This document shows, one piece after another, positions 1-8,201 of a stretch of 47,646 bases of DNA. Below the pieces are notes generated by a model. It made no database searches. It worked only from the letters and a program-made list of their open reading frames with translations, and was not told where the DNA came from. How positions within the stretch are numbered: position 1 is the first letter of the stretch; each line of letters starts with the position of its first letter. The DNA lies in contig LCFP01000009.1 in NCBI GenBank assembly GCA_000999095.1, positions 1-47,646 on the forward strand. The letters run 5' to 3'. Both the position numbers and the translations under genes were made by a program. The stretch comes from Candidatus Gottesmanbacteria bacterium GW2011_GWA2_43_14. Its GTDB lineage: Bacteria; Patescibacteriota; Microgenomatia; 2-02-FULL-39-11.

Positions 1-104
1 ACGAAATCAGGCCGCATGAATCTCTTGATTATCTGACTCCTATTGAATATGCTACCAAAAACTTCGAAGTGTCACCTATGTGGTCGTCCAGGACACGGAT
101 TTGA
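1..104 (+). mobile_element. 3' end of IS481/IS3-type DDE transposase and probable right IS end (truncated by window)
   Basis: Frame 3 reads EIRPHESLDYLTPIEYATKNFEVSPMWSSRTRI*, matching the integrase-core C-terminal RPHxxLxYxTP motif. GTGTCACCTATGTGGTCGTCCAGGACA ends in ACA at 95, like IS481 termini (TGT...ACA). Confidence 0.7.
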
Positions 105-111
105 CAACGTT

Positions 112-120
112 TGGTATAAT
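112..120 (+). promoter_or_regulatory. Extended -10 promoter (TGnTATAAT) for the T-box/tRNA/his transcript
   Basis: TGGTATAAT about 20 nt before T-box Stem I. TTGACA at 101-106 is only 8 nt upstream, too close to be its -35. Confidence 0.55.
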
Positions 121-140
121 GAAAAAAATAAAGTTATAAA

Positions 141-360
141 GCGTTTAACCGGAGTCACGATCCGGGAGCTGAAGGCCAAAATGCCTTACGGAAGCTTATC
201 CGTAAAATGAAGCAATCGGTGTCGCCAGCGCGGAGCCGTACCAAGAGTCCTCCGAAGTAAGATCGGAGGGAAGAAGGATGGGACCGCGGGAGGTCCATTT
301 TTTATGCCTCTCGTTCCTTAAGCACTATTGATTTAGTGGTTAAAGAACGGGAGGTTTTTA
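141..360 (+). ncRNA. T-box riboswitch, His-specific, ultrashort Stem I, transcription-attenuation type
   Basis: Stem I CCGGA-gtCACga-TCCGG (149-165) with His codon CAC in the loop and a flanking GA/K-turn-like GAGC; hairpin TTACGGA/TCCGTAA; F-box-like GCCGTA (235-240); Stem III CTCCGA/TCGGAG; antiterminator AAGGA-TGGGACC-GCGGGAGG...CCTCTCGT-TCCTT (274-319). Confidence 0.9.
307..360 (+). terminator. Intrinsic terminator of the T-box leader
   Basis: CCTCTCGTTC...GAACGGGAGG hairpin (307-354) followed by TTTTT; its 5' arm is shared with the antiterminator 3' strand, so the two are mutually exclusive. Confidence 0.85.
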
Positions 361-368
361 TTGTAAAT

Positions 369-441
369 GGTGGGTGTAGCTCAGGAGCAGAGCGTCCGCC
401 TGTGGAGCGGAAGGTCGCGGGGGCAGAACCCGTCATCCACC
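369..441 (+). tRNA. tRNA-His (GUG), G-1 encoded, C73, full CCA not encoded
   Basis: Acceptor GTGGGTG/CATCCAC, D stem GCTC/GAGC, anticodon arm TCCGC-ctGTGga-GCGGA, T arm GCGGG-ggcagaa-CCCGT. G-1:C73 is the His identity pair. Confidence 0.92.
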
Positions 442-444
442 CAT

Positions 445-1323
445 ATGAATAAACAAAGTAAAGAAAATTTAATTCTTGCTGTTCAAAAAGAAGGGCGTTT
501 GACCGAAGAAACGCTGTCTTTTTTGTGGAAAGCTGGCTTGAAGTTTGAAAATTACAAAAATAAGTTATTTATTACCTGCAGAAATTTTCCTTTAACAATT
601 CTTTTTGTCAGAATAAATGACATTCCGGATTATATAACGTCCCAAACAGCGGATTTAGGTATTACCGGCCAGAATCTACTTTGTGAAAAACGGCCCATCG
701 TCAGTAAACTATTGAATTTGCGTTACGGATTTTGCTCACTGGTAATTGCGGTACCAAAGGACTCGCAAATCAAAAAATTACAGGATTTAAAAAATAAAAA
801 AATCGCTACCTCCTATCCTGAATCACTGATAAATTTTCTGAGTAAAAAGAGAATTAAAGCCGACATCAAAATTATAAACGGATCAGTTGAAATAGCTCCT
901 TCCATTGGACTTTCCGATGCTGTAGCCGATCTGGTTTCATCCGGATCGACTTTGGCCAGTCATGATCTGAAAGTGTTAACGAAAATATATGATTCAGAGT
1001 CGGTTCTGATCAGCGGTAAAAATATTTCCAAACGGAAAATGAAAAGTCTGTTATTAAAACAATTATTAGGAAGGTTTAAATCAGTCTTATCAGCCGAGAA
1101 TTATAAATGCATATATTTGGAATTACCTGAAAACAGATACCGGAAACTGAAAAAAATTATTCCGGGAATAAAAATCGAATCTGCAGTTTCCATAGGAAAA
1201 AATCGTCTTTTTATTTCAGCCGTAATTAAAGAAGATTTTATTTGGAATTCGCTCGATAAATTAAAAGCAATAGGGTCAGGCAGTATTTATCTTCAACCGT
1301 TGGAAAAAATTATCAACATTTAA
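445..1323 (+). CDS. hisG: ATP phosphoribosyltransferase, long form
   Basis: LAVQKEGRL, DIPDYI..DLGITG, IATSYP and GSVEIAP..DAVADLVSSGSTL motifs. Start reassigned to ATG 445 because 367-444 overlaps the tRNA. Confidence 0.95.
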   Translation: MNKQSKENLILAVQKEGRLTEETLSFLWKAGLKFENYKNKLFITCRNFPLTILFVRINDIPDYITSQTADLGITGQNLLCEKRPIVSKLLNLRYGFCSLVIAVPKDSQIKKLQDLKNKKIATSYPESLINFLSKKRIKADIKIINGSVEIAPSIGLSDAVADLVSSGSTLASHDLKVLTKIYDSESVLISGKNISKRKMKSLLLKQLLGRFKSVLSAENYKCIYLELPENRYRKLKKIIPGIKIESAVSIGKNRLFISAVIKEDFIWNSLDKLKAIGSGSIYLQPLEKIINI

Positions 1324-1332
1324 ATAACAAAT

Positions 1333-2622
1333 ATGAAAGTTGTCAAACTCAAAGAGTTGTCCTCAAAAGATTATCAAAGAATTGCGGCGCGCTCAAGCGG
1401 AACTAATCCGCATATTCTTCCAAAGGTTAGACAGATCATGGAAGCTGTCAGAAAAGAAGGCGATAAATACTTAGTCGGTGAATTTAAACGCCGCTTCGGT
1501 AAAAGTAATTTCAAATCGTTCTTAGTTTCGAAAGATGAGATTAGAGAAGCTTACCGCCAAGTTGATAAACGGCTGATAACCGGACTTAAACAGATGATCA
1601 AGAACATTACTATGGTCCATAAAGCACACTTACCCAAAAAGACAGATAGGAAAGTTTTTTCGGAAAAAGGAATAGCTGTCTGGAGGGTCTGGCGAGCGAT
1701 TGAAATAGTCGGTATTTATATTCCCGGAGGTAAAGCAATTTACCCCTCATCTGTTTTAATGACTGCTATTCCGGCGGCAATTGCCGGTTGTCGGGAAATT
1801 GTCATGTGTTCACCGGCAAGAGGTGATGGGCAGATTCCTCCAGCGACCCTGGTTGCCGCCGACATGGTTGGTCTAACCAAAATATTTAAAACCGGTGGGG
1901 TTGAAGCGATTGCCGCCATGACCTACGGTACGGAAACCATTCCGGCTGTTTATAAAATTTTTGGAGCAGGCAATTCCTTAGTTACTGCTGCCAAGTTGCT
2001 GGCCTTGGAAAAAATTGCCATCGATATGCCAGCCGGTCCATCAGAAATTTTTATCATTGCAGACAAAGAAGCAAATCCCGGTTTCATTGCCGCTGACCTC
2101 TTGGCTGACGGTGAACACGGGTTTGATTCCGCCTGCATTTTGTTAACTACTTCAAGAAAAGTTGCAGAAGAGACTATAAAAGAAATCAAAAAGCAGTTAC
2201 TAAAGCTTTCAACCGGTAAGATGGCGGAAGCATCGATTCGAAAGTTCGGTCTGTTTGCGGTAGTGGATTCGCTCGAAGAAGCGATTGATTTTACCAACAG
2301 TTATGCTCCGGAACATTTGGAAATTATGGTTGAAAATCCGGAAAAGGTAGTAGCTAATATTACTAACGCCGGATCGGTTTTCCTGGGTGAATATACTTCC
2401 AAATCCGCAGGGGACTATGCAACAGGAGCAAATCACGTATTGCCAACAGGAGGTATGGCGAAGAATTATCCGCCTTTGGGAGTTGAGGCCTTTGGTAAAT
2501 GGATGCAGGTACAAAAATGCAGTCGTAAAGGGCTTAGTGGGATAAGAGAAACGATCAGAATATTGGCTGAATACGAGGGATTACCGGCACATGATGTTTC
2601 AGCGGATATAAGATTTAAGTAA
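1333..2622 (+). CDS. hisD: Histidinol dehydrogenase
   Basis: GIYIPGGKAIYPSSVLM, IDMPAGPSE, APEHLE and GDYATGANHVLPT motifs. Confidence 0.97.
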   Translation: MKVVKLKELSSKDYQRIAARSSGTNPHILPKVRQIMEAVRKEGDKYLVGEFKRRFGKSNFKSFLVSKDEIREAYRQVDKRLITGLKQMIKNITMVHKAHLPKKTDRKVFSEKGIAVWRVWRAIEIVGIYIPGGKAIYPSSVLMTAIPAAIAGCREIVMCSPARGDGQIPPATLVAADMVGLTKIFKTGGVEAIAAMTYGTETIPAVYKIFGAGNSLVTAAKLLALEKIAIDMPAGPSEIFIIADKEANPGFIAADLLADGEHGFDSACILLTTSRKVAEETIKEIKKQLLKLSTGKMAEASIRKFGLFAVVDSLEEAIDFTNSYAPEHLEIMVENPEKVVANITNAGSVFLGEYTSKSAGDYATGANHVLPTGGMAKNYPPLGVEAFGKWMQVQKCSRKGLSGIRETIRILAEYEGLPAHDVSADIRFK

Positions 2623-2632
2623 GAAAATAATT

Positions 2633-3703
2633 ATGACTGACCAATTTTTTTCAAAAATCGCGCAGACGGCAGTACCTTATGCCTGGGAAAAGGGAGTGGT
2701 TCCGGGCATGTTTCGTTTTGACTGTAATACTCTTACAGATCCGCCGGCATGCCTGGATCAATTTCTGAATGATATGAAGAGGAAATGTCCGATAAATGAA
2801 TATGGTGATCCCGACTGCAGCCGGTTAAAGGCACTTATCGCCGTATATGAAAAAATTAAACCGAATCAAGTAACGGTCACTAACAGCGGAGACGAGGCAA
2901 TTGATATTTTAGCCAAAACATTTTTAGATCCCGGCGATAAATTCATGGTCACGCCGCCGACATATGAAATGTTTCAAATCCAATCTCAAATTAACGGAGG
3001 CAAAAGAATCGACATTCCATTAACGGGAAGAAATTTCCGGATTGATAAGAAAGAAATAATTGCACGCTGTAAAAAAGGCAGGGTCAAACTTATATTTTTA
3101 TGTAATCCCAATAATCCTACTGGGTCTGTAATTCATCCGGCAGATATTGAAGAAATTGTAGGTAAAGCCGGGACAGTGGTTGTTGTTGATGAAGCCTATC
3201 GCGAATTTTACGGTAAGACTTCGGTAGGCTTAATATCTAAATACAACAATCTGGTGATTTTAAGAAGTTTTTCCAAATTCGGTTCAATTGCCGGAGCCAG
3301 AGTTGGTTATCTTCTGGCAAATCAAAAAGTATCTGAAAAATTCGATGCCATTAGATTGCCAATGGGTGTTTCTTATTTTTCCTCTATGTTGGCGGAAAGA
3401 GTTCTTGAAGATAAAAATTGGATTATCAGAAATTCCGGGGAAATTATCCGGGAAAGAACAAAACTTGCAAAAGTTTTCCGTAAACTAGGGTTTGAAGTAT
3501 ATGACAGCGCTGCCAATTTCCTGTTGGTAAGAATCGGGGATAAAGCCGGAGAGATTTGCCGGAAATTAAAATCGCGAAAAATATTGGTGCGGGACCTAAG
3601 TAATCAAAAATATCTGGAAGGATGTGTCAGGATAACCGTCCGCAGCAAAAACGAAAATAAAATATTAGTATGTGTTTTAAAGGAGATTCTTAATGAAAAA
3701 TAA
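2633..3703 (+). CDS. hisC: Histidinol-phosphate aminotransferase
   Basis: LCNPNNPTG, VDEAYREF and RSFSK..AGARVGY class II PLP motifs; operon context. Confidence 0.93.
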   Translation: MTDQFFSKIAQTAVPYAWEKGVVPGMFRFDCNTLTDPPACLDQFLNDMKRKCPINEYGDPDCSRLKALIAVYEKIKPNQVTVTNSGDEAIDILAKTFLDPGDKFMVTPPTYEMFQIQSQINGGKRIDIPLTGRNFRIDKKEIIARCKKGRVKLIFLCNPNNPTGSVIHPADIEEIVGKAGTVVVVDEAYREFYGKTSVGLISKYNNLVILRSFSKFGSIAGARVGYLLANQKVSEKFDAIRLPMGVSYFSSMLAERVLEDKNWIIRNSGEIIRERTKLAKVFRKLGFEVYDSAANFLLVRIGDKAGEICRKLKSRKILVRDLSNQKYLEGCVRITVRSKNENKILVCVLKEILNEK

Positions 3704-4445
3704 GTTTGATTGCCTAATTTTTGACATGGACGGGGTACTGGTGGATGTATCCCGGTCATACCGTAAAGCGATTGAATTAACGGTAAATTTTTATTTGACA
3801 GAAAAAGGCAATGCCGGAAAAATCAGCCAGAAAGAAGTAAACAGAATAAAAAATCAGCCCGGATTTAACAATGACTGGGATGCGGCGTACCGACTGGTCG
3901 GATTATCAAAAAGGGACAGTAAACCTGATGGAATATTGCCGCTAACCGAACAGGAGAGAAACAGCCGAATTTTCAGAAAGCTGAAGAGGATATTCCAGAA
4001 TTTTTATTTGGGCAGTCAGTTGTATGAATCGATTTACGGAAAAAAAGCCGGATATATTGTTGGACTTGGATTGATAGAAAAAGAATCACTGTTAATCAGG
4101 AAAAATTTATTGCTACTTCTAAAACGAAAATATTCTCTGGCAATTGCCACCGGTCGTCCCCGACCGGAAGCCCTCTATACGTTGAGACGATTCGAACTTG
4201 AAACCGGTTTCCACGCGGACATGGTAGTTGCTTTTGAAGATGCAGCATACCCGAAACCCTCCCCGGATCCTTTAATTACCGCAGCCGGCAGAGCTGGAGG
4301 AAAGAATTGTGTTTATATAGGTGACACAATCAGTGACATCGAGGCAGCTGAAAGAGCGGGAATGTTTTCTGTTTATATCGGAAAAGAAAAAATGGGAAAT
4401 CTGCAGCTTAAAAATGTTAATCATTTGAAGGAGGTCTTTTTGTGA
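3693..4445 (+). CDS. HAD-superfamily hydrolase, probable histidinol-phosphatase
   Basis: FDMDGVLVD, GFNNDWD, TGRP, KPSP and YIGDTISD motifs; lies between hisC and a monofunctional hisB. Confidence 0.8.
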   Translation: MKNKFDCLIFDMDGVLVDVSRSYRKAIELTVNFYLTEKGNAGKISQKEVNRIKNQPGFNNDWDAAYRLVGLSKRDSKPDGILPLTEQERNSRIFRKLKRIFQNFYLGSQLYESIYGKKAGYIVGLGLIEKESLLIRKNLLLLLKRKYSLAIATGRPRPEALYTLRRFELETGFHADMVVAFEDAAYPKPSPDPLITAAGRAGGKNCVYIGDTISDIEAAERAGMFSVYIGKEKMGNLQLKNVNHLKEVFL

Positions 4446-5035
4446 CAAAAAGAGTGGCACAAATTAACCGGAAGACCAATGAAACTGATATCAGTCTGAC
4501 TTTAAATCTAGAAGGAACGGGTAAAAGCGTTTTGGATGTGCCATTGGGCTTTTTAAGTCATATGTTGTCGTTGTTTGCTGTTAACGGCGGTTTTGATCTG
4601 AAAGTCAGAGCAGCGGGAGACATTGAAGTTGATGAACACCATTTGACTGAAGATTTGGGAATCGTACTTGGCCAGGCGTTTGCCAGGTGTTTGGGAGATA
4701 AGCGCGGGATAAACCGCTTCGGTTTTTTTATATTACCGATGGATGAAGTCCTGGCAACTGTCGCGGTTGATTTTGCCGGCCGCTACGCTTTCGGTTTTAA
4801 TTCTGTATTTAGCCGGGAAAAAATCGGCGATTTCCCGACCGAGCTGGTATATGATTTTTGGCAAGCGTTTGCCCAAAATGCCCGGGCGAATCTGTTTATT
4901 AAAACCGAGTTTGTCCGCAATGACCATCATCAGATCGAAGCAATTTTTAAGGCGACGGCCCGGGCAATGAAACAAGCTGTGGTTATAGATCCGAAAATTA
5001 AAAATGAGATACCTTCAACGAAAGGCGTCATATGA
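4442..5035 (+). CDS. hisB: Imidazoleglycerol-phosphate dehydratase (monofunctional)
   Basis: RKTNETDI, DEHHLTED, PMDE, NDHHQIEAIFKA and IPSTKG motifs. Confidence 0.97.
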   Translation: MTKRVAQINRKTNETDISLTLNLEGTGKSVLDVPLGFLSHMLSLFAVNGGFDLKVRAAGDIEVDEHHLTEDLGIVLGQAFARCLGDKRGINRFGFFILPMDEVLATVAVDFAGRYAFGFNSVFSREKIGDFPTELVYDFWQAFAQNARANLFIKTEFVRNDHHQIEAIFKATARAMKQAVVIDPKIKNEIPSTKGVI

Positions 5036-5637
5036 TCGCTGTTGTGGATTACGGAATAGGAAATATTGGCAGTGTTGCCAACACCATAAATAAACTGGGA
5101 TTTAAATTTAGAATTACAGGCGATCCTGAAATTATTGGTAAAAGTAAAATTATTATTTTACCCGGGGTAGGATCGGCTGCAGCAGGCATGGCAAATTTAA
5201 AAAAATTAAACTTGGCTGAAACTATTACCGATCAGTTGAGAAATAGAAAGCCTTTCCTGGGAATATGTTTAGGCATGCAGCTACTATTCGATTACAGTGA
5301 AGAGGGTAAAGTTGAATGTTTGGGATTTATTAAAGGTAAAGTATTGAAATTTAAGAAGATGAAGAAAGTCCCTCACATAGGCTGGAACAGAGTCAGTTTT
5401 AAGTCTAATGGATTTAAATATTCTCAAGGATTTAAAGCAAACAGCTATTTTTATTTTGTAAACAGTTATTATTGCGAGCCTGCTGATAAATCAATTGTTG
5501 CCGGAACTACGGATTACGGTGAAAGTTTTGCCAGTGTAATTATACGAAATAATTTATTGGCTACTCAATTTCATCCTGAAAAAAGCGGCATTACCGGATT
5601 ATATTTACTCAATAATTTTTTTAAACATTATCTATGA
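5032..5637 (+). CDS. hisH: IGP synthase glutamine amidotransferase subunit
   Basis: VDYGIGN, LPGVG, GICLGMQ, PHIGWN and QFHPEKS motifs. Confidence 0.97.
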
Positions 5638-6398
5638 TTACAAAAAGAATAATTCCCTGTTTGGATATGACAGAAGGTAAAGTTGTCAAAGGCATAAAAT
5701 TTGAAGCTTTTAGAGATGCTGGTGATCCTGTGGAACTGGCTGAAATATATGACAAACAGGGAGCTGACGAGTTGGTTTTTCTTGATATTACTGCTACCGT
5801 TGATAACCGGCCGATTTTGCTTGATGTCGTAAAAAGAACTGCCGTTAAAGTTACCATACCTTTTTCCGTGGGCGGAGGCGTCAGAAGTGTTGACGATATG
5901 AGGCAAATTCTTATAAATGGTGCGGATAAAGTATCAGTAAATACAGGCAGTGTAAGAAATCCTGAGCTGATCAAAAAATGCGCCAATACTTTTGGCTCAC
6001 AATGTGTCGTTTTGTCTCTTGATGCGAAAAAAGTTAGACCAAAAATCTGGAATGTCTTTATCGACGGAGGGAGAACTGACGCCGGGTTAAATGCGATAGA
6101 ATGGGCAAAAGAAGCGGTCAGAATTGGCTGTGGAGAAATACTATTAACATCAATTGACCAGGATGGGACAAAGACGGGATTTGACGTTGAACTTACAAAA
6201 ATAATTTCCGAAGCAGTTTCAGTTCCGGTGATTGCTTCCGGTGGCGGAGGCAAGTTATCGGACTTTTATGATATTTTTTCCAAGGGTAAAGCCGACGCTG
6301 CCTTAGCTGCGTCATTGTTTCATTTCAATGAATTGACTGTCCTGCAGATAAAAGATTATTTAGAAAAAAAAGGTATTGAAGTCCGAAATGAAACTTAA
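5634..6398 (+). CDS. hisF: IGP synthase cyclase subunit
   Basis: [34 protein letters not shown] and PVIASGG motifs. Confidence 0.97.
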
Positions 6399-6699
6399 TT
6401 TTGCCAAACTTGGTAGTGTTGTGCCGGTGGTGATTCAGGAAAAAAAGTCCGGTCAAATTTTGATGGTCGGTTTTATGAATAAAGAGGCAGTTTCAGCTTC
6501 CATCAGAAGCGGTTATGTTGTCTTTTGGAGCCGGGAGCGGAAAGCATTATGGAAAAAAGGGGAGACAAGCGGCAATCAATTCCGGCTTCTCGAAATAACA
6601 GCCGACTGTGACCGGGATAGTCTATTAATTCAAGTTAAACTTGTGGGGGTTGGTGCCTGTCATTTAGGTTTTAGAAGTTGTTTTCGGAATAAGTTATGA
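6388..6699 (+). CDS. hisI: Phosphoribosyl-AMP cyclohydrolase
   Basis: [20 protein letters not shown] and ACH.G..SCF motifs; ATG 6388 preferred over TTG 6376. Confidence 0.95.
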
Positions 6700-6977
6700 C
6701 CTTAAAACAATTAGTAAAAATCATCGATAGTCGGAAGAAGCAAAAGTCGCCTGAGTCTTATGTATGTCAATTAATCTCAAAAGGAACAGATCGGCTTGTC
6801 CAAAAAATCGGCGAGGAAGCAATCGAGGTAGTTATTGCTGGCAAAAACGGCAACCGGAGAGAAATAATCAGCGAATCCGCCGATCTCTTGTTCCATTTAT
6901 TGCTCTTTTGGTCACTGCAAAAAATCAGCCTGAATGATATTGAAAAAGAATTACAGGAGAGAAATATCGGACGATAA
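6696..6977 (+). CDS. hisE: Phosphoribosyl-ATP pyrophosphatase
   Basis: SY...L, KIGEEAIE and ESADLLFH motifs. Confidence 0.95.
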   Translation: MTLKQLVKIIDSRKKQKSPESYVCQLISKGTDRLVQKIGEEAIEVVIAGKNGNRREIISESADLLFHLLLFWSLQKISLNDIEKELQERNIGR

Positions 6978-8201
6978 TTAAGAAAATTTTTCCGTTAATT
7001 TCTCCTGCGGAATCGTTTCCTGTTTTTGGGTCTGTAAATTTTTCAGAGTGACTGTTTGCTTTTTTGCCTCATCCGGCCCCGCAATGACGGCGTAAGGGAT
7101 TTTTTTCTCATCGGCGTACTTGAGCTGTTTTTGCAGTTTGTCATTCGGATCCGGATAAAGGTCGGTATTGATGTTTTTACTTCTGAGAAGCTGGGTAATT
7201 TTTTGGGAGTAGGAAACCAGTTCTTTGTTAAAGACAGTGACTAAAACCCGGGTGTTTGTCGCCATTTGCGGAAAAAGCTCCATTTCCTCCATGGCCAGAA
7301 TGGTCCGGTCAAAGCCTACGGCAAAGCCGACTCCGGGAACTTTTCTGTCCGAAAATCTGGAGACGACACTGTCAAAACGCTCACAGCCCGCCAAAGAACC
7401 GCTGTCGAATTCTTCGGCAATGATTTCCCAGATTGTGCCGTTGGAATAGGAAAAGGACCGGGCAAGGGAAGGGGAGAATTTATAATTTTCTTTCATGCCG
7501 TAATTGTCCAGGAAAGAAAAAATATATTTCAGATTATCGTTAGGTTTATTATTTCTGACTCTTTCCAAAAGCTCTTTGGCTTTCCTGTCGTCAAAGCCTT
7601 TTTTAAACAGGTCTTTAATAACCCCGGTCTCTCCGATTTTATCCAGTTTATCAATGGCAATAATTGCTTCATATGGAATACCTTCATAAAGATCTCTGTC
7701 ATTGATTACGGCAACCGGTTTTTTAAAGCCCAGGTTATTATATATCTCGATTGTTAAGGCGATGGTTTCAGCGTCGGCTGTCCGGTCGTCAACGCCAAAT
7801 ATATCGGCATCGCACTGCAGGAATTCCCGGTAGCGGCCTTTCTGCGGTTTTTCCGCCCGCCAGACCGTCTGGATCTGGTACCTTTTAAAAGGCATTTTTA
7901 TTTTATCGGGATATTGGGCGACTACTCTGCAGGTGGGAACAGTCTGGTCATAGCGCAAAGCTACTTCCCGGCCTCCGGAGTCGGTAAATTTATAAAACAT
8001 CTGTTCGCCTTCGCCGATTGAACCGGCGAATATATCCAGATATTCGATGGCCGGGGTTTCCAGCGGTTCGAAGCCGTAGAGCTCGAAAGTTTTGCGGATG
8101 ATCTCGATGGCATACTGTCTTTTGCGGGCTTCTTCAGGCAGGAAATCCCGGAAGCCTTTTAATGTTCTCGGTTCAACTTTTTGATTATTTTTCATTGTCA
8201 T
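6978..8201 (-). CDS. hisS: Histidyl-tRNA synthetase
   Basis: GFRDFLP, LRYDQT, WRAEKPQKGRYREFLQCDAD, GFAVGFDR motifs and a C-terminal anticodon-binding domain (KQLKYA). Confidence 0.96.
   Translation of the reverse strand: MTMKNNQKVEPRTLKGFRDFLPEEARKRQYAIEIIRKTFELYGFEPLETPAIEYLDIFAGSIGEGEQMFYKFTDSGGREVALRYDQTVPTCRVVAQYPDKIKMPFKRYQIQTVWRAEKPQKGRYREFLQCDADIFGVDDRTADAETIALTIEIYNNLGFKKPVAVINDRDLYEGIPYEAIIAIDKLDKIGETGVIKDLFKKGFDDRKAKELLERVRNNKPNDNLKYIFSFLDNYGMKENYKFSPSLARSFSYSNGTIWEIIAEEFDSGSLAGCERFDSVVSRFSDRKVPGVGFAVGFDRTILAMEEMELFPQMATNTRVLVTVFNKELVSYSQKITQLLRSKNINTDLYPDPNDKLQKQLKYADEKKIPYAVIAGPDEAKKQTVTLKNLQTQKQETIPQEKLTEKFS

Follow-up and report, generated by a model that had tools for sequence, protein, structure and literature searches.

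A histidine-specific T-box leader with an ultrashort Stem I lies ahead of a second tRNA-His gene and the his operon in a Gottesmanbacteria genome

T-boxes respond to the ratio of charged to uncharged tRNA and have been described as riboswitches controlling synthetase, biosynthesis and transport genes. tRNAs are also cut out of longer messages, as in the tRNA punctuation of mitochondrial transcripts and in bacterial tRNA-mRNA co-transcripts such as that of the tufB operon. According to the text available from PMC7583486, transcriptional T-boxes generally need a long, platform-bearing Stem I, and an 'ultrashort' Stem I is a trait of translational, actinobacterial T-boxes. The available part of PMC3399842 describes tRNA-Other of Bacillus cereus, a pseudo-tRNA with an effect on trpS1 expression via the T-box system, and that of PMC12256121 a Staphylococcus aureus glyS T-box served by multiple tRNA-Gly isoacceptors, including non-proteinogenic ones. 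Here, we describe a His-specific T-box leader of about 220 nt in the window, by which we mean the whole stretch of 47,646 nucleotides analysed (contig LCFP01000009.1 of Candidatus Gottesmanbacteria bacterium GW2011_GWA2_43_14). Its terminator is followed by a second copy of tRNA-His(GUG) and then by hisG. Within a known riboswitch class, we rate as new the combination of an ultrashort Stem I with a terminator, and the tRNA as regulated gene; searches of a literature collection of incomplete coverage, so that prior mention is possible, turned up neither a T-box described ahead of a tRNA gene nor any T-box described from Patescibacteria or the candidate phyla radiation.

The elements of the leader and the two genes that follow it are:

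101-129, + strand: promoter-like region, with TTGACA at 101-106 and TGgTATAAT (extended -10 type) at 112-120, from scan and sequence
135-359, + strand: T-box leader, His-specific, terminator type, ultrashort Stem I (Rfam RF00230 and covariation)
149-165, + strand: Stem I hairpin, CCGGA 149-153, loop GUCACGA 154-160, UCCGG 161-165
172-176/183-187, + strand: Stem II, all 5 pairs compensatory
188-191/200-203 and 194-197 with 210-213, + strand: Stem IIA/B pseudoknot
249-255/263-269, + strand: Stem III, all 5 pairs compensatory, 100% paired
274-319, + strand: T-box sequence and antiterminator, helix A1 274-278/315-319, bulge UGGGACC 279-285, helix A2 286-293/307-314
281-303, + strand: small hairpin GGACC/GGUCC with U-run inside the antiterminator loop (terminator-like scan match)
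306-359, + strand: intrinsic terminator, stem 306-355, U-run 355-359
369-441, + strand: tRNA-His(GUG), second copy, atypical elbow (Rfam tRNA 48.2 bits, own model R1 80.5 bits)
445-1323, + strand: hisG, long form (TIGR00070 177.9 bits and HisG C-terminal domain)

The window leader is an ultrashort-Stem-I structural variant of the T-box. Rfam RF00230 aligns end to end with window positions 135-321 of the + strand (40.6 bits, E 1.1e-7 for the 461 bases searched), with 7 nt in place of the 75 model positions of distal Stem I, and in this alignment the K-turn, the AG bulge and the distal loop that make up the elbow platform are absent from Stem I. The His specifier CAC (156-158) stands in the 7-nt terminal loop, matches the GUG anticodon of tRNA-His and has his genes downstream. 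Within the T-box sequence, AAGGAUGGGACCGCG at 274-288, UGGG (279-282) is complementary to the C73-CCA end of tRNA-His and is invariant in 13 of 13 leaders.

The proposed structure is carried by covariation. BLAST of window positions 130-450 against 61 related genomes gave the leader matches, and alignment A1 holds 13 leaders of one family. RNAalifold finds 57 pairs in them, 25 with compensatory double changes. A T-box structure written by hand, pseudoknot and antiterminator included, has 96.2% of 559 cells paired and 21 of 44 pairs compensatory; none of 500 shuffles scored as high, and sliding the partners by 1-3 columns lowers pairing to 33-48%. Alignment pairs 16:32 and 17:31 of Stem I covary, in the pseudoknot, double changes affect two of four pairs and are visible in the window's own sequence, and three of the eight A2 pairs show compensatory changes. 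The Stem I loop motif is identical in 13 of 14 loci, the 14th differing by one stem base. In what follows G000 is the genome of the window, other G-numbers are related genomes, C-numbers contigs and L-numbers loci. In G005, a sister T-box combines the loop GUCGCGA, in the same position, with a UGGC bulge, which shows where the codon is read in the ultrashort architecture. Strand 307-319 is common to the antiterminator, as its 3' strand, and to the terminator, as its 5' strand, and both helices covary. Folded alone, the antiterminator reaches -16.2 kcal/mol; the terminator reaches -28.6 kcal/mol (z -7.3, 0 of 200 shuffles as stable), with compensatory pairs in the leader alignment. The GGACC/GGUCC hairpin inside the antiterminator loop is kept in all 13 leaders and its U-run is invariant. 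It is possibly a pause site or a weak first terminator, and a pause at this point might give a platform-less leader time for tRNA capture. Four further T-boxes are present in G000, all below threshold (40-57 bits versus 93); from their N-terminal sequences we take the genes behind them to be trpE-, argF- and alaS-like, plus one that we leave unnamed.

How does this leader compare with the described systems? With the classical transcriptional T-boxes (Bacillus tyrS and glyQS; RF00230) it shares the specifier, the UGGN bulge, Stem II, the IIA/B pseudoknot, Stem III, mutually exclusive antiterminator and terminator, and a position ahead of amino-acid genes. It differs from them in reading the codon from the terminal loop of a single-hairpin Stem I that has no K-turn, AG bulge or platform, in the hairpin and U-run of the antiterminator loop, and in having a tRNA as first downstream gene. 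The actinobacterial ileS T-boxes whose Stem I is intermediate or 'ultrashort' (Sherwood et al. 2015, cited after the available text of PMC7583486) likewise have no elbow platform and rely on the Stem II domain and the pseudoknot. They are translational, however, and sequester the ribosome-binding site, whereas the window leader has a strong terminator, is specific for His instead of Ile and belongs to another lineage. The leader thus contradicts the generalisation that terminator-type T-boxes need a long, elbow-binding Stem I, and at about 220 nt it is compact enough to be useful for structural and kinetic study. As in S. aureus glyS, several tRNA paralogs, some of them non-canonical, converge on one T-box, although the tRNA-Gly genes are not reported as T-box-controlled in the part of PMC12256121 available.

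The gene behind the terminator is atypical in one region. It matches the Rfam tRNA model at 370-441 with 48.2 bits (gathering score 29), has G-1 at 369 paired with C73 at 441, anticodon GUG at 402-404, and CA after C73, so that CCA is not fully encoded. G-1:C73 is an identity element for HisRS, the histidyl-tRNA synthetase. The D-loop of the leader copy is AGGAGCA (383-389) and its T-loop GGCAGAA (422-428), against the usual UUCRANY; G18 and U54-U55 are missing and only G19 and C56 are kept of the canonical elbow. Because of this remodelled elbow, ARAGORN gives no call for the gene. Used alone, the program undercounts tRNA-His, with no call for the copies of G017, G292 and G346 either, and we replaced it by R1, our own tRNA-His covariance model, which in the 21 genomes of the window's family separates tRNA-His (at least 80 bits) from other tRNAs (at most 70 bits); scoring covered up to 150 candidates per genome, and some genes may have been missed. 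Compared with a canonical tRNA-His on another contig (G000:C2:57896-57968), the leader copy has both-sided changes in the acceptor and anticodon stems, every stem being intact, and the tertiary 15:48 pair is changed on both sides, from A:U to G:C. On this comparison the fold of the leader copy is maintained; its translational use in G000 is uncertain.

A first-pass annotation of this DNA had read a T-box with a CAC specifier and a UGGG bulge, a terminator and, about 9 nt later, tRNA-His(GUG) followed by hisG. Our analysis agrees on each element: specifier and bulge are there in the sequence, the structure around them covaries in 13 leaders, and the gap between the U-run and G-1 is 9 nt (360-368). 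It had asked whether this was the only tRNA-His of the genome, which the canonical second gene answers in the negative. It had also proposed a survey of T-box, tRNA and operon adjacency, and the arrangement does recur. BLAST with the G015 leader across the class matched 64 of 401 genomes; its 30 best loci, together with those of G010 and G008, make a class-wide set of 32 loci in 32 genomes, in all of which the UGGG T-box sequence or the CAC loop motif is present. By R1, tRNA-His lies directly behind the terminator at 22 of the 32 His T-box loci, in 8 families. The next gene after the linked tRNA is hisG at 16 of these 22, and hisS lies further downstream in G267, G379 and G036. All 22 linked tRNAs have an invariant G-1:C73 and, as read by eye from the alignments, GUG in the anticodon loop; pairing holds in 99.6% of their stem cells, with compensatory changes at 14 of 22 pairs, in an alignment fitted to the model, which favours pairing. 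The kept identity and pairing argue for a working tRNA-His over a relic.

Most genomes with a linked copy have another tRNA-His as well. Of the 21 genomes in the window's family, 11 combine a copy behind the His T-box with a free-standing one, 2 show only the linked copy (G015 and G020, both 85% complete) and 8 only the free one. A free-standing gene accompanies the linked one in G000 and in 10 of the 12 other family genomes with a linked copy, and also in G111, G292, G140, G346 and G036. In G111, which is 97% complete with 43 tRNAs, the linked and the free gene make a total of two for tRNA-His. Because the free-standing gene is present too, the sensor would be independent of its own output.

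Some loci of the set show further features between or around these elements. At L010 (G019:C46) a second tRNA-His-like sequence extends from about 60 nt upstream to 45 nt downstream of the linked tRNA-His, such that its acceptor, D, anticodon-stem and T arms flank a complete tRNA-His gene lying inside the apparent anticodon loop of the outer one. L007 (G011), L014 (G008), L017 (G016) and L020 (G013) have a conserved hairpin between terminator and tRNA whose ends, GGUGGAACGU ... ACGUUCCUACC, mimic the tRNA-His acceptor stem. A second hairpin comes next, and its 3' strand runs into G-1 and G1 of the tRNA. This is possibly the relic of a minihelix or an element used in processing. L015 (G010), L020 (G013), L016/L074 (G041) and L072 (G036) have a structured module of about 75-130 nt with a conserved core and inverted ends, AAUCCNCC ... 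GGNGGAUU, which lies either within the antiterminator loop or in the stretch from the terminator to the following gene. Scans of L015, L016 and L020 gave no Rfam match at E <=0.01; the module could be a mobile repeat or an RNA element not yet described. Histidine-racemase-like genes (DapF-fold, below family cut-offs) come directly after the linked tRNA-His at L049 (G267, 1825-2646) and L057 (G101, 556-1467), in G267 with hisS behind; no hisG was seen at these two loci, which belong to small genomes.

Why would a tRNA gene be placed behind a riboswitch that reads the same tRNA? We consider it fairly probable that one T-box-gated transcript yields extra tRNA-His together with the his enzymes. 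This reading builds on what is present in the DNA, that is, the elements with their order, spacing, conservation and covariation, and the second tRNA-His. Transcription would start near 125-130 and give a single unit gated by the platform-less His T-box. Uncharged tRNA-His would base-pair at two places, CAC of the Stem I loop and UGGG of the bulge, and so let the antiterminator form; the polymerase would pass the terminator into the second-copy tRNA-His and then the his operon; such tRNA-dependent read-through is expected by analogy with the established T-box mechanism. RNase P would then cut at the 5' end of the tRNA, removing the T-box leader, and 3' processing at C73 with CCA addition would free the tRNA; the hisG mRNA would then keep about 3 nt before its start codon and be in effect leaderless. 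The processing sites and the leaderless translation of hisG are suggested by the spacing. In consequence, histidine shortage would increase tRNA-His along with the biosynthetic enzymes, with the constitutive tRNA-His gene elsewhere sustaining translation and sensing. We discarded an action of the downstream tRNA in cis on its own leader, since it is transcribed only after the termination decision.

Several observations weigh against this reading. The RF00230 score of 40.6 is below the gathering score of 93, because Stem I is cut down to a single hairpin; the leader is accordingly not reported at the Rfam gathering threshold, and a first scan of the whole genome missed it too. To our knowledge, the ultrashort-Stem-I class has no biochemical precedent as a transcriptional switch. 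Without G18 and U54-U55 the leader copy may not be a normal tRNA. At ten of the 32 His T-box loci the tRNA is absent, which means that the switch does not require it; in G339, G345, G010 and, by our own reading, G074 such loci lead straight into hisG, and the others precede hisS operons (G285, G349), a histidine ammonia-lyase gene (G276) or unassigned open reading frames (ORFs). In nine relatives a spacer of 35-196 nt between terminator and tRNA leaves room for a hidden promoter. As to processing, the presence of RNase P RNA and a CCA-adding enzyme in G000 speaks for the reading; against it, the only RNase Z-like match is weak (58 and 43 bits versus a cut-off of 293). Leaderless translation in this lineage is itself a deduction from sequence. 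Finally, T-boxes sense the charging ratio, so more tRNA need not give positive feedback. Such feedback through more tRNA-His is plausible; the extra tRNA would mainly speed capture, which could matter for a leader without an elbow platform.

Confirmation of the proposed circuit would mean that a riboswitch has its own ligand among its outputs, with autoregulation of the sensor species combined with end-product control in a simple natural circuit. A broader scenario, which we regard as improbable though worth stating, is that in this class of groundwater bacteria with small genomes the platform-less His T-box and the T-box-driven tRNA-His paralog evolved together as a sensor-plus-ligand module that makes its own effector, with some rebuilt-elbow paralogs being regulatory instead of translating, and with tRNA excision giving the first enzyme or HisRS a leaderless mRNA. 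The degradative gene of G276 is a counter-intuitive case of His T-box control: at L069 a His T-box and terminator stand directly before hutH (1785-3248, histidine ammonia-lyase, above the curated cut-off), which would apparently be induced by uncharged tRNA-His.

The short distance between the tRNA and the start codon bears on what the tRNA is for. The ATG of hisG lies at 445, 3 nt after C73, and the NCBIfam hisG model starts at residue 10 counted from it; this, and an overlap with the tRNA, led us to reject the longer ORF from ATG 367 as hisG start. The ATG thus stands a few nt from the 3' processing site of the tRNA, and no Shine-Dalgarno motif was found before hisG, where the upstream bases are those of the acceptor stem; the HAD gene and hisB of the same operon do have one. 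A start codon 2-3 nt after C73 is found at 8 of the 22 loci (G000, G015, G020, G018, G013 and G008, and at 2 nt in G379 and G111), and in G007 it follows at 7 nt. The 3-nt spacing suggests a role in processing, and an unlikely alternative takes this role to be the only one: the tRNA would be a signal that detaches the leader and makes a translatable hisG 5' end, having no function as decoder or ligand. The abutment of other tRNA genes and ORFs in G000 points the same way, as do the structured element of about 130 nt that occupies the position of the tRNA in G010 and the elbow remodelling tolerated in 5 of 22 linked copies. Any tRNA would serve such a purpose, yet 22 of 22 are tRNA-His with G-1:C73 and GUG; moreover, the His T-box is the only one of the five in G000 to be followed by a tRNA, the sister T-box of G005 having none either, and at 13 of the 22 loci the spacers are longer, some of them with a Shine-Dalgarno motif. 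With mitochondrial punctuation and tufB, the locus shares the excision of a tRNA from a longer transcript and an mRNA whose start is set by the tRNA 3' end and whose leader is short or absent. It is unlike them in that the tRNA stands behind a riboswitch terminator and is cognate to it, and bacterial cases such as tufB keep normal leaders.

The other three tRNA genes of G000 that abut an ORF, with the ATG 1-5 nt away and ORFs of 191-233 aa, are:

G000:C2:47835-47906: tRNA-Gln(UUG), ORF start within 1-5 nt
G000:C11:8228-8301: tRNA-Arg(CCG), ORF start within 1-5 nt
G000:C11:13962-14050: tRNA-Ser(UGA), ORF start within 1-5 nt

Two of these ORFs encode domain proteins, one HD_3 and one alpha/beta hydrolase, in which the domain starts near residue 12-13. 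The abutments suggest that tRNA-punctuated, near-leaderless mRNAs may be a general habit of this organism.

A second alternative, which we hold to be slightly less likely again, starts from the rebuilt elbow. It proposes that the remodelled tRNA-His is a non-translating paralog dedicated to sensing, the ligand of a T-box that has no distal Stem I platform and hence does not need the elbow. Among the 22 linked tRNAs, 5 have G55 with A18 or C18, positions 18 and 55 changing together, and all five precede hisG. Their T-loops are GGCAGWA in G000 and G346, AGCGUUA in G020 and G292, and UGCAACU with C18 in G140. Free-standing copies of the G55 type occur in G002 and G017, identical to each other and with the acceptor stem of the window copy, and in G267, bringing the variants to 8 genomes; a canonical copy is also present in all 6 of these that are at least 96% complete. 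The pairing of canonical and odd copies fits a specialised or a redundant role of the odd one. tRNA-Other offers a precedent (available text of PMC3399842), being likewise an additional, atypical tRNA with an anticodon that fits a T-box of its own cell; it is not, however, encoded behind its T-box, as far as that text goes, whereas the leader tRNA lies inside the regulated transcript and looks canonical in most relatives. Indeed, 17 of the 22 linked copies are canonical, and G002 and G267 have the odd copy free and the linked copy canonical. In G017 and G020, both 85% complete, only the odd copy was seen; if either genome truly has no other, the odd form must work in translation. Together with the tRNA-ATG abutments, the recurrence of rebuilt-elbow tRNA-His points to an unusual tRNA biology, with mitochondria-like punctuation in bacteria that have few protein regulators.

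The leader copy of G000 could also be on its way out. We give a low probability, a little below that of the dedicated sensor, to redundant drift, in which the arrangement is functional in the lineage and the leader copy of G000 is under relaxed selection and heading for loss. A canonical copy exists in G000, the leader copy has the lowest model score among the 32 tRNA-His sequences compared, and the tRNA was lost or never present at the ten tRNA-less His T-box loci. The stems of the leader copy are nevertheless all intact and carry compensatory changes, the 15:48 pair has changed on both sides, and a GGCAG-type T-loop is also found in G346, which belongs to another family, and in G002 and G017, as a conserved form and not random decay.

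The remaining question is whether the tRNA belongs to the T-box transcript at all. The promoter scan's own choice is TTGACA-17-AAAAAT, and 101-129 probably acts as promoter, to judge from its sequence. A similar TTGACA-N8-TAYAAT lies upstream of the G015 and G016 leaders. In three His leaders (window 101-120, L008 and L017) TTGACA is followed after only 8 nt by a -10 of the TGnTAYAAT type, an unusual promoter geometry that would lean on the extended -10. No sigma-70-type promoter match was found by the scan in 130-445, and the 9 nt between terminator and tRNA are too short for one; the first-pass annotation had named an independent promoter at this place as what would break the unit, and none was found. 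The terminator-tRNA gap is 0-15 nt in G000, G015, G012, G020, G101, G292, G346, G111 and G267, and the distance from U-run to G-1 is 0-1 nt in G015, G012, G101, G292 and G346; the values of G101, G292, G346, G111 and G267 were read by eye from the loci. That the tRNA, hisG or both have promoters of their own and are adjacent by accident, for which the 35-196 nt spacers of some relatives leave space, is therefore very improbable given the short gaps of these nine genomes, the absence of a promoter match in 130-445 and the recurrence of the arrangement at 22 of 32 loci in 8 families.

Behind hisG, the operon and the gene facing it are:

1333-2622, + strand: hisD
2633-3703, + strand: hisC
3693-4445, + strand: HAD-type phosphatase
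4442-5035, + strand: hisB
5032-5637, + strand: hisH
5634-6398, + strand: hisF
6376-6699, + strand: hisI
6696-6977, + strand: hisE
6978-8201, - strand: hisS (histidyl-tRNA synthetase), convergent and not placed behind the T-box (TIGR00442 352.2 bits, above cut-off)

No hisA was found in the operon, and genome-wide the hisA family model matches only hisF in this 98% complete assembly; HisF may do both steps, HisA may be very divergent, or hisA may be unassembled. Ribosomal protein L30 was not found in the same assembly, and its absence is a hallmark of the candidate phyla radiation, in agreement with the lineage guessed in the first-pass annotation. In five family genomes without a His T-box, including G001 of the same genus (93% complete), hisG was not found.

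The idea of the first-pass annotation that the unit is a portable cassette keeps circumstantial support, namely its patchy presence and an insertion sequence (IS) end directly upstream, which fit an accessory cassette that may be mobile. Window positions 1-95 are the end of a repeat that encodes a transposase-like C-terminus and is found at four contig ends (C9, C6, C23 and C14), which we take, on our own reading of the sequence, to be an IS end. The tRNA as integration site of a his island was rejected as main explanation, since the T-box lies upstream of it and the same order is found before hisS-type operons. On C6 the repeat end also sits just upstream of the argF-like T-box leader, and the only RNase Z-like gene of the genome (G000:C4:82912-83691, metallo-beta-lactamase fold) lies directly upstream of the trp-operon T-box.

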